Shown in pieces: positions 9,555 to 11,014 of a stretch of DNA of 64,000 bases (the first letter of the stretch is position 1; every line of letters begins with the position of its first letter). Both the position numbers and the translations under genes were made by a program. This DNA is from Schmidtea nova (lineage: Eukaryota): the NCBI GenBank assembly GCA_044892505.1, contig CM097882.1, forward strand, positions 277,078,001 to 277,142,000, written 5' to 3'. The notes under the pieces are model-generated. The model worked only from the letters and a program-made list of their open reading frames with translations. It did no database searches and was not told where the DNA came from.

Positions 9555-10118
9555 TTATTTATAGTTTAATAATACCGAGGGCCTGATTACATTTAGTAGT
9601 TCTTGCTCGGATAGACCACTGAGCAAGTCTACCTCTATTCCTACGCGATCTGCATAGGCGCGTCTTTCCCTACGCTTCTTCGCTCCCAAGCGATTCCGTC
9701 TTTTCGTTCGTTTCGAGCCTTCTAGAATTATTGGGGATGTTGTGGTAGTTGTGATTGGGATGGTTTCTATTTCCGTTTGGGTGCTCGTCGTCATCGATAT
9801 TGTGTCCATCCACCGATTAAAGGTGCTAGCCCTGATCACTGGGCGTAATTGCTCGGTGATAAACTCCTGGGTGGATGCCCTCAAGTAATTTGACAGCTCC
9901 ATCTTTAGTGCGGCGACCTCTCTAGCTTGCTCGTCGATTGTTCGTTCTGCCCTGTATCTGGCTTGTAGGATGGTTTTAACCCTTTCTGGGTTGAACCACG
10001 TGGTTTTAATTCGCTGGTGCTCGTCGTTGAGCTGTCTCAAGCGGTTTTCTAGGACCCGCGATCGTGCTTTATGTTCTTTGGCCTCTTGTTTGTGGTTCTT
10101 AGTTGAATGTTCGCTCAT
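9555..10118 (-). CDS. LTR ORF-B, coiled-coil protein with a basic C-terminal patch
   Basis: The likely start is MSEHSTK (ATG at 10118, preceded by TTACATTTTTCAG-AA). The stop overlaps AATAAA (9554-9559). Heptad-like helices and KRTKRRNRLGAKKRRERR. Confidence 0.7.
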   Translation of the reverse strand: MSEHSTKNHKQEAKEHKARSRVLENRLRQLNDEHQRIKTTWFNPERVKTILQARYRAERTIDEQAREVAALKMELSNYLRASTQEFITEQLRPVIRASTFNRWMDTISMTTSTQTEIETIPITTTTTSPIILEGSKRTKRRNRLGAKKRRERRAYADRVGIEVDLLSGLSEQELLNVIRPSVLLNYK

Positions 10119-10310
10119 TTCTGAAAAATGTAACATTAATCGGGTTATGTACGGTTTGTCTGTTCCCTCAGTCACTATCTTTACTATTAAACAGGTCTTT
10201 CACTTTTAGATCACTTCATGCTCACAAAGTCATAACAAAACCCAAAAATTGAATACATTTATTTTTAACACACATATCATCTTTCTTCGACTGATCGACT
10301 TCCTTGCGAT

Positions 10311-10946
10311 TTAGAGGAAAGGTCTTAACTCCTGATCGCTGGTATTCTCATCCCGACGGATTCCATTCTCCCAATACATTTCTGGGGCTGGGCTCCAACT
10401 CAGCTTGTCTTTGTAGATAAACACCTCCCAGAGGCGAAGCTCCTTGGGCTCGGGGTGTTGTTCCATGGAAACACTTCCTGGCGCATTGGAATAAGCGAAG
10501 ACTTCCTCAGTGTAGCGACACCGAGGCCTGTCTAGCAGCGTGTATCCGAGTTTGTGTAGCTCTTTTCCGGTCATCGTTCCGGTACTTAGCAGCCAGCGGG
10601 GTTGCTGTAACTCATCGCAGAATTGATAGAACCATCGGGGGTTCTCCGGCTTGCTATGATCCGAGGAGGGTACCCAATCAGTATCTCCTTCCCACCGCAG
10701 CTGTAGTCCGAACGCACAAGCTGGGGTATTAGCTGCTGAGCTCATGTGAGCCCTCATCCATCGTCGTAGGTGGCGACGTGATACCTCTGCAACCTTTCGA
10801 GGTGCTTCGTTTTCTCCTCTGACGTTTATGATCGTATGGTGTCGGATTACGGAGCGGGTGCGCCGTTTCTTGCGAAGGATGGTGTCTTCTAGTTTTATCG
10901 GGTGCGTGATCATCGGCTTCACTTGGAGATTCTCTAACTTCACCAT
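10311..10946 (-). CDS. LTR ORF-A, basic N-terminus plus Trp-rich domain (211 aa)
   Basis: ATG lies 57 nt downstream of TATAAATA, and AATAAA follows at 10258-10263. RKKRRTR is NLS-like. No recognisable family. Confidence 0.7.
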   Translation of the reverse strand: MVKLENLQVKPMITHPIKLEDTILRKKRRTRSVIRHHTIINVRGENEAPRKVAEVSRRHLRRWMRAHMSSAANTPACAFGLQLRWEGDTDWVPSSDHSKPENPRWFYQFCDELQQPRWLLSTGTMTGKELHKLGYTLLDRPRCRYTEEVFAYSNAPGSVSMEQHPEPKELRLWEVFIYKDKLSWSPAPEMYWENGIRRDENTSDQELRPFL

Positions 10947-11002
10947 AATGTTCTAAGTAAAATGGTGGTTGGTTAACTATGGATTATATGATATAACGGG
11001 CC

Positions 11003-11014
11003 TATTTATATTGG
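11003..11014 (-). promoter_or_regulatory. TATA box (TATAAATA) with adjacent CCAAT in the LTR (also 37150-37161)
   Basis: CCAATATAAATAGG on the minus strand, upstream of ORF-A. Confidence 0.55.

Follow-up and report, generated by a model that had tools for sequence, protein, structure and literature searches.

Can a retrotransposon's long terminal repeat (LTR) carry two complete protein-coding genes and, if so, how would they be expressed and what would they do for the element? This question is raised by a stretch of 64,000 nucleotides of the planarian Schmidtea nova (GenBank assembly GCA_044892505.1, contig CM097882.1, positions 277,078,001 to 277,142,000 of the forward strand; hereafter the window, numbered from its first letter), which holds a giant Gypsy-like element of 29,445 bp on the minus strand. 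A sequence-only reading of this DNA had placed two genes, open reading frames (ORFs) A and B, inside the LTR of the element. We observed that ORF-A and ORF-B are almost certainly real genes, and the explanation that we consider best overall, at about an even chance of being right, is that they form a spliced two-gene LTR cassette whose ORF-B protein acts in trans on the RNA of the element for read-through or export.

Self-comparison of the window showed that the element has TG...CA ends, a 4-bp target-site duplication (TSD), GTCG, and two identical LTRs of 3,298 bp each. A TATA box, ORF-A, an AATAAA, ORF-B and a second AATAAA overlapping the ORF-B stop were all located as claimed by the sequence-only reading, the TATA box at 11010-11003 and everything wholly within LTR 9173-12470. 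Coordinates of the cassette are given for the 3' LTR copy, which reads on the minus strand, from high to low. In the 5' LTR, the ORF copies lie at 36458-37093 (ORF-A) and 35702-36283 (ORF-B). The features of the LTRs are the following.

9173..12470, minus strand: 3' LTR, 3,298 bp, TG...CA, with the whole cassette inside; matches 35320-38617 at 100% identity
35320..38617, minus strand: 5' LTR, with every LTR feature repeated at +26,147 and a primer-binding site just internal to it, which we take to be tRNA-Pro-like
12045..12098, minus strand: promoter P1, with a reversed CCAAT box, a TATA box TATAAATA at 12068-12061 and an initiator-like TCAGT at 12049; predicted start at about 12047
11961..12047, minus strand: leader exon, about 87 nt, ending at donor D1 (AG/GTAATT, 11961/11960)
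10953..11960, minus strand: intron of about 1 kb between D1 and the ORF-A acceptor, where the LTR varies most; exactly missing in loci L077 and L166
11003..11010, minus strand: P2 TATA box TATAAATA, upstream of ORF-A
10311..10946, minus strand: ORF-A, 211 aa, whose basic N-terminus varies and whose Trp-rich alpha/beta domain is conserved; its acceptor AG ends at 10953
10225..10263, minus strand: poly(A) signal after ORF-A, AATAAA at 10263-10258 with a GU/U-rich downstream element; the weaker signal, often a variant hexamer
9555..10118, minus strand: ORF-B, 187 aa, with helices, a TQT motif, an Arg/Lys-rich motif and a C-terminal helix; its acceptor AG ends at 10121
9515..9559, minus strand: poly(A) signal over the ORF-B stop, AATAAA at 9559-9554 with a GU-rich downstream element, kept in 76 of 77 copies; predicted border between the R and U5 regions (repeat and unique 5' regions)
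9173..9400, minus strand: structured RNA element at the LTR end, probably U5, with a GNRA-loop hairpin and 97-99% identity among family copies

The coding nature of the two ORFs was assessed on a sample of 100 family loci, from which six second LTRs of the same element were dropped and four loci lacking one or both ORFs were set aside. At synonymous divergence (dS) above 0.05, the pairwise ratio of nonsynonymous (dN) to synonymous divergence was 0.18-0.24 for ORF-A and 0.08-0.12 for ORF-B. In disjoint pairs, dN was lower than dS in all 44 comparisons for ORF-A and in all 38 for ORF-B, with summed ratios of 0.23 and 0.11; these dN/dS figures are descriptive and not tree-based, since the copies recombine. 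The same disjoint-pair comparison revealed no region of either ORF with dN above dS. The most constrained part was the basic and C-terminal block of ORF-B (dN 0.019 versus dS 0.48), and the N-terminus of ORF-A evolves faster (dN 0.23 versus 0.09). At least 150 copies of each ORF are present in the same genome, nearly all without internal stops and with ORF-A identity down to 66%, these copy counts being lower bounds biased toward intact copies; among 17 cassette-bearing copies chosen by non-coding DNA, 16 had an intact ORF-A and 15 an intact ORF-B. None of 500 base shuffles of the LTR gave two ORFs of at least 187 aa. Both ORFs are thus under purifying selection and are kept across families, homologues being found in sister families, and the lack of conservation that would have spoken against two LTR genes was not what we observed. 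The proposal that a solo LTR stays a coding unit also held, both ORFs being intact in 24 of the 31 solo LTRs recognised among 88 classified LTRs.

Along LTR positions of about 720-2800, loci L001-L100 carry cassette types 13-32% apart between flanks only 4-7% apart, without linkage to either flank; since cassette divergence is high, the flanks are near-identical and linkage is missing, old cassette variants appear to have been shuffled by recombination. At one locus (L065), an LTR carries ORF-A only, ORF-B having been deleted between two similar poly(A) motifs.

How are the two genes reached? The TATA box of P1, about 1 kb upstream of the P2 TATA (11010), is kept in 85 of 87 copies, and the P1 layout recurs in sister families as the only promoter-like site common to families. 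D1 conforms to a strict donor pattern in 68 of 86 copies, and most of the misses shown read AG/GTATG. On the acceptor side, a YAG lies within 16 nt of the ORF-A ATG in 89 of 89 copies, a pyrimidine-rich acceptor pattern being present there in 83 of 89 (about 7 expected), and within 8 nt of the second ATG of ORF-B in 77 of 78. This second ATG, at 10118, is the most likely start (187 aa); the first one, at 10136, occurs in only 33 of 77 copies. Between donor and acceptor, mean identity among family copies is 0.68-0.79 (LTR positions 701-1500).

Exact loss of the intron was observed in three genomic insertions, twice from the donor to ORF-A and once from the donor to ORF-B. In L077, a solo LTR with TSD GGAT, donor exon and ORF-A exon meet at precisely the GT and AG positions of its relatives, and the same exact join was found in a different subfamily (L166/L170); no 5' LTR could be located for the L166 element, as this copy breaks off. 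L167 and L168 are both 1,748-bp LTRs of one sister-family element (TSD TTTC), where the ORF-B exon directly follows the donor and ORF-A is skipped. The junction patterns yielded one match (L077 itself), one true match out of seven (the six others unrelated) and two out of two for L167/L168; four sequencing runs of unrecorded kind gave no GT-AG joint among the 15 joints listed, and no RNA run was listed among the runs that contain this DNA. From their sequence, the intron-less copies are what reverse transcription of a spliced, packaged RNA would leave, which we take as showing that both splices took place in such RNAs; cis-splicing from the P1 leader exon to both ORFs is very probable. In both families, an AG also precedes the RING, gag and internal accessory ORFs by 0-15 nt (seven of the eight elements sampled matched). 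D1 as the sole possible donor for the RING acceptor was considered and rejected, the leader holding other donor-like sites.

The CCAAT-TATA pattern of P1 occurs 9,753 times in the genome, across many repeat families, versus 86 times for a reversed control, which suggests a promoter grammar shared among transposons, with a short distance from TATA to initiator. The reversed CCAAT and TATA layout, with 20-21 nt spacing, also heads unrelated repeat families (L131, L132), some as inverted pairs about 14 kb apart.

The sequence-only reading had given each gene its own TATA box and poly(A) signal. For the TATA box, this stands for ORF-A, with P2 kept in 82 of 89 family copies (about 3.5 expected), and fails for ORF-B, a TATA ahead of it being found in 3 of 77 copies, below the roughly 11 expected by chance. 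P2 itself lies inside the spliced intron and is absent from 5 of 6 other-family LTRs checked; it may be a secondary ORF-A promoter, probably confined to the family of this element. The associated idea of an R region of about 1.4 kb starting from the 11010 TATA is not supported, the deeply conserved promoter lying 1 kb upstream (12068) and both genes being reached by splicing from the donor at 11961/11960. Poly(A) signals, as proposed, accompany both genes. Downstream of ORF-A, 59 of 60 close copies carry an exact AATAAA, against only 10 of 29 divergent ones (27 of 29 when variants are allowed); the AATAAA after ORF-B is nearly invariant, as given above.

Sister families retain both ORFs at 15-30% protein identity. 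One of them is in the window itself: positions 1-2127 (minus strand), continuing in locus L103, are the 3,350-bp 5' LTR of a high-copy sister Burro-like family with many near-identical young copies, which has the same promoter core, a donor and a 158-aa ORF-A homologue at 252-728. In a profile comparison, this ORF together with two relatives matched ORF-A with a probability of 91.7 (E 7.6e-7), and an ORF-B homologue of 30% identity lies downstream of it, past the window edge. Of the first 100 matches listed for the CCAAT-TATA pattern, 20 were sampled; ORF-B homologues were present in 10 of these loci (E<=2.5e-20) and clear ORF-A homologues in 5. Since three loci (L120, L124, L127) showed ORF-B without ORF-A, ORF-B is the more constant gene of the cassette.

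We then turn to the proteins. ORF-A contains 8 Trp and a basic patch at about residues 25-31, and its model combines the variable basic N-terminus with a conserved helix-plus-sheet domain at a mean predicted local distance difference test (pLDDT) score of 61.5. Structure prediction followed by fold search, a check put forward with the sequence-only reading, gave no match for either protein: for ORF-A the best values were E 0.85 (PDB), E 0.16 (viral models) and Z 4.0 in a wide search, none of them accepted, and for ORF-B the best E against viral models was 1.9. As the ORF-A model is mediocre, ORF-A may yet have a known fold. A cystatin- or NTF2-like assignment of ORF-A was discarded, rows with a helix on a sheet being a common arrangement. 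Neither ORF had a hit among proteins of near length in a set of 5.8 billion; nothing reached the Pfam cut-off, PDB sequences gave nothing under E 0.06 and the Atlas no usable match. An ORF-A profile run against 1.84 billion representatives returned two repeat-rich proteins, which were judged spurious. By sequence, both are protein families with no detectable relative in these databases.

The ORF-B model consists of long helices (6-41, 44-91 and 97-109), a disordered linker and two C-terminal helices. Helices 6-109 are confident in the monomer model (predicted template modelling score, pTM, 0.31), the coiled coil being a prediction only, and the linker has pLDDT below 50 at 112-137, with the TQT motif at 110-116. 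Aligned across families, ORF-B retains the WF-x-P kink and the IRP/RW block, as well as a basic motif with G at its centre and a TQT-like motif whose position is fixed. In each of the 12 family members aligned, the basic motif (136-155) contains 9-12 K/R among 20 residues. TQT[ED] is found in 77 of 78 family copies and TTSTQT[ED] in 75 of 78. Clients of the dynein light chain LC8 carry a motif [T/V/I]-Q-[T/V]-[D/E] in disordered segments beside coiled coils (PMC3078936). The ORF-B motif fits this description, and ORF-B is a predicted LC8 ligand. As a separate observation, the genome contains at least 61 LC8 matches, including clusters of near-identical uninterrupted LC8 genes (L134-L141; C2, 5-45 Mb).

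The sequence-only reading had compared the basic patches with those of RNA-binding or trans-acting regulators of complex retroviruses. This stands in part: ORF-B has what resembles the anatomy of an RNA-binding regulator, its basic motif being kept in all aligned members, and its layout of coiled coil and Arg-rich motif looks Rev-like. What defines a Rev-like protein is an Arg-rich motif together with an export signal, to which coiled coils are usually added (PMC5568270). Like HIV (human immunodeficiency virus) Rev, HTLV (human T-lymphotropic virus) Rex, MMTV (mouse mammary tumour virus) Rem and HERV-K (human endogenous retrovirus K) Rec (PMC5568270), ORF-B would be small and made from a spliced RNA, and it combines an Arg-rich motif with a predicted coiled coil; its origin from spliced RNA is seen as a junction in the sister-family genomic copy L167/L168, and both the Rev-like systems and the present element require spliced and unspliced RNA. 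Unlike these proteins, ORF-B has no detectable homology to them, an uncertain export signal, an added LC8-type motif and a Gypsy-like retrotransposon as host. By this analogy, ORF-B may be an RNA-processing or export switch for the element, a role that we find plausible though short of probable.

Where would the cassette lie in the U3/R/U5 layout (U3 being the unique 3' region)? The last 230 bp are the best-conserved part of the LTR, with two-sided changes at 10 of 24 predicted pairs (13 sequences from few lineages); this structured element has no Rfam match. The distal LTR end has no TATA, initiator or exact AATAAA common to families. A TATA-initiator pair at 9220/9200 and an AATAAA at 9366 were dropped as signals, not being kept across families, and a sequencing-depth peak at the LTR end was not used, as the 93-98% identity of this region in divergent families explains it. 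On the plus strand, positions 9327-9337 within the structured end form an invariant word that is a perfect splice donor on that opposite strand; it is part of a predicted stem and may be only structural.

One junction is common to cassette-less LTR pairs from two separate loci, and L096 and L118 represent two further short types. All these types keep P1 and the distal LTR end, and P2 is absent from the cassette-less pairs. Because such pairs exist, neither the cassette nor P2 is likely to be needed in cis. Should P1 also be the source of genomic RNA, both genes would fall inside R; on the simplest map, U3 would then measure about 0.42 kb, R, which would close after the AATAAA of ORF-B, about 2.5 kb, and U5 about 0.36 kb. 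The conservation of motifs across families favours this upstream genomic start, and we lean slightly toward ORF-A and ORF-B lying within a long R. Linkage of LTR windows to the leader (27 copies) and to the flank before the polypurine tract (16 copies) gave rho <=0.42 and about 0 over the ORFs, values that are uninformative for the placement of R. LTR borders need RNA data (PMC3601003). With two poly(A) signals inside the LTR, the earlier remark that poly(A) sites in the 5' LTR must be passed stands. In HIV and foamy viruses, the 5' poly(A) site is suppressed through U1 binding at a donor, and by analogy D1 could suppress the 5' LTR poly(A) sites via U1.

From these data the following mechanism may be proposed. 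Transcription would start at P1, at about 12047, and the leader exon would be spliced to ORF-A or ORF-B, the default being two short mRNAs ending at their respective poly(A) sites. Such mRNAs would be made from 5', 3' and solo LTRs alike, so any LTR could supply both proteins. A fraction of transcripts would read through both poly(A) sites and give spliced RING, Gag-Env-Pol and internal accessory mRNAs together with the unspliced genome; the long RNAs would have to pass two poly(A) sites, and the genome would also have to escape splicing. ORF-B is predicted to dimerise via its coiled coil, helped by host LC8, to bind element RNA via its Arg-rich motif, perhaps at the structured LTR-end element, and to serve as an early-to-late switch in the manner of Rev, Rex and Rem, with ORF-A likely a second nuclear early protein. 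In its fullest form, the approximately 2.5-kb R would be a spliced early unit and ORF-B an independently evolved Rev- or antiterminator-type protein that binds LTR-end RNA and flips expression from short mRNAs to the genome; we think this complete version unlikely.

In the adenovirus major late unit, one leader exon is joined to many acceptors, each gene has a poly(A) site and transcripts switch from short to long. The layout proposed here resembles it, with the differences that adenovirus is an unrelated DNA virus, that here the first two genes lie in a terminal repeat and that the switch is one we only infer. LTR-internal coding sequence expressed by splicing is also known from MMTV sag and rem exon 2 and from HIV nef (PMC12789967). 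Unlike those cases, which are in U3, two complete genes, a donor, acceptors, a promoter and poly(A) sites are all in the LTR here, maybe in R, and no sequence similarity of the cassette to MMTV sag/rem exon 2 or HIV nef was found.

Several observations weigh against the reading that we prefer. The TATA-to-initiator gap of 21 nt at P1 is below the textbook value, and no D1-to-ORF-B junction was found in the family of the element itself with the one pattern used. Spliced copies fit a U3 location of the cassette equally well. Since most copies have donor-like sites in their leader, read-through from P1 is not proved by the RING acceptor. For ORF-B, the LC8 motif usually has T in place of K at -3, and variants such as CGT, IGT or TNT occur in distant families. 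A leucine-rich export-signal pattern follows the basic motif in 9 of 12 members, in differing registers and several times with Pro; the other 3 have no match, one of them being truncated. The basic patches are of low complexity and may be plain localisation signals. In addition, only about 5% of planarian promoters carry a TATA (PMC10558129), and retroviral R regions measure 15-250 nt (PMC12789967), a 2.5-kb R being ten times that.

The cassette might instead lie, spliced as described, in a 2.9-kb U3, with genomic RNA made from a second promoter close to the LTR's 3' end, a short R and P1 driving only ORF-A and ORF-B. This would agree with the characterised LTR-resident ORFs found, all of which are in U3, and with the usual R size (PMC12789967); it needs no poly(A) suppression in the 5' LTR, and TATA-like words are indeed present over the ORF-B poly(A) signal in 73 of 87 copies and at 9220 with a TCAGT (74 of 87 and 83 of 87). 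We regard it as possible but rather unlikely, as neither distal TATA is kept across families, a sense-strand structure is conserved over the last 230 bp, adjoining the primer-binding site as a U5 would, and the genome must still pass both poly(A) sites in the 3' LTR. That the P2 TATA is the main promoter, with R of about 1.4 kb, is very improbable: despite its conservation in the family (82 of 89 copies), P2 is absent in 5 of 6 other-family LTRs and deleted in LTR pairs with a shared junction at two loci, and it falls within the spliced-out intron, leaving no donor upstream of the ORF-A acceptor. Spliced-leader (SL) trans-splicing offers another route, in which ORF-A, ORF-B and the internal array would be an operon resolved by poly(A) cleavage and SL addition. 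The ORF-B acceptor comes about 140 nt after the ORF-A poly(A) signal, and in operons of S. mansoni the median spacing between cistrons is 99 bp, cis- and trans-splicing in flatworms often sharing acceptors (PMC12582326). The two routes could coexist, but cis-splicing, which is depleted at operon-resolving acceptors (PMC12582326), is recorded directly from the LTR donor for both acceptors here, and we consider the operon improbable.

As to what the proteins do, they could act on the host or on particle transport, ORF-B as an LC8/dynein-linked trafficking or oligomerisation factor and ORF-A in counter-defence, for example against silencing by PIWI-interacting RNAs (piRNAs). The LC8-type motif at a fixed place in ORF-B, the faster N-terminus of ORF-A (dN 0.23 versus 0.09) and the divergent cassette types in near-identical flanks would fit this, as would the other cargo of such elements (RING, TRAF, apoptosis-type), which targets apoptosis and ubiquitin systems (PMC6431247; PMC13465017), and the fact that Burro elements are piRNA targets (PMC8532177). 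We nevertheless find it doubtful, since constraint on ORF-B is strongest on the basic motif, kept in 12 of 12 aligned members, and no region has dN above dS. Finally, the ORFs could be non-functional passengers, having no homologue in the databases searched and sitting in a cassette that is deletable in cis; with dN below dS in 82 of 82 disjoint pairs and with ORFs, splice signals and poly(A) signals conserved across families, the chance of this is close to negligible.

The element that carries this cassette was inserted into the integrase of a second, ordinary Gypsy element (8446-9162 and 38567-41359). Its main internal features are these.

16488..31385, minus strand: 4,965-aa polyprotein with Gag zinc knuckles, a mononegavirus-type fusion glycoprotein, protease, reverse transcriptase, RNase H, integrase and ankyrin repeats (Pfam)
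34313..34771, minus strand: RING ORF in the leader, with an acceptor before its ATG and an AATAAA after its stop
12675..16364, minus strand: internal accessory array (116 aa, TRAF/MATH of 470 aa, a coiled-coil gene and 174 aa), each ATG directly after an AG

Within the polyprotein, Pfam matches place the fusion glycoprotein at 1912-2253 and the protease at 2439, so Env is in frame between Gag and protease. Ankyrin, MATH/TRAF and RING cargo are all present (Pfam). A stretch at about 26580-26620 (residue about 1594), before the env region, resembles a Bcl-2 BH2 motif, though Pfam gave no match to it. No Pfam match to BIR, BCL2-like, SUMO-like or dUTPase-like domains was obtained with the whole polyprotein and five sub-regions; in the Burro review, some such domains were recovered by HHpred only (PMC6431247). 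By its sequence, the element is of the Burro/GYPSM1 design of giant planarian Gypsy elements, a class with multi-kilobase LTRs and a single ORF of about 4,900-5,100 aa. Like those described in PMC6431247, it has about 30 kb, an ORF of about 5,000 aa with Gag, in-frame mononegavirus-like Env, protease, reverse transcriptase, RNase H, integrase and ankyrins in matching domain order, MATH/TRAF and RING cargo and accessory ORFs. In contrast to that account, TRAF is placed downstream of the polyprotein here, and its text mentions no LTR-internal genes, splicing map or U3/R/U5 borders. The coiled-coil accessory gene (13274-14420) is split in two pieces here and is a single ORF of 387-394 aa in several other copies. 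Elsewhere in the window, we noted a further ordinary Gypsy element at 3702-7087 and, at 51555-53463, a 351-aa transposase-like ORF (52129-53184) between long inverted repeats of 22-nt units, Tc1/mariner-like by appearance.

Burro1 is expressed and under piRNA control, Burro elements being piRNA targets whose repression is lifted by knockdown of the nuclear PIWI (PMC8532177). Burro1 reportedly supports planarian stem cells and regeneration, aiding the latter through a RING/BIR region, as told second-hand in PMC13465017. The RING ORF at 34313-34771 is a possible counterpart of the Burro1 B-IAP region (known from the same second-hand source), no BIR having been detected in it. No account of genes inside Burro LTRs was found in the literature, a weak negative as Grohme 2018, Lee 2026 (Dev Cell), figures and supplements were not covered. 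The class of element is thus already known, and what is added here are the selection data and the precisely spliced genomic copies.

These results point to a Gypsy-like element with the expression plan of a complex retrovirus, in which one leader exon serves many acceptors and candidate regulatory proteins are encoded. Because genes, donor, acceptors, promoter and poly(A) sites are all within the LTR, a solo LTR is a self-contained unit, and solo LTRs become protein-coding units, beyond mere promoters. If the proposed mechanism is true, hundreds to thousands of them would supply regulators in trans, and an R of several kilobases would strain present ideas on strand transfer and on how a poly(A) site is chosen between two identical LTRs. 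Host expression of the anti-apoptotic cargo of the element would likewise be tied to a complex-retrovirus-like switch in a Gypsy lineage. Since Burro1 reportedly supports regeneration, two small, strongly constrained genes accessible to RNA interference would offer a direct test of how such elements are controlled in planarians.

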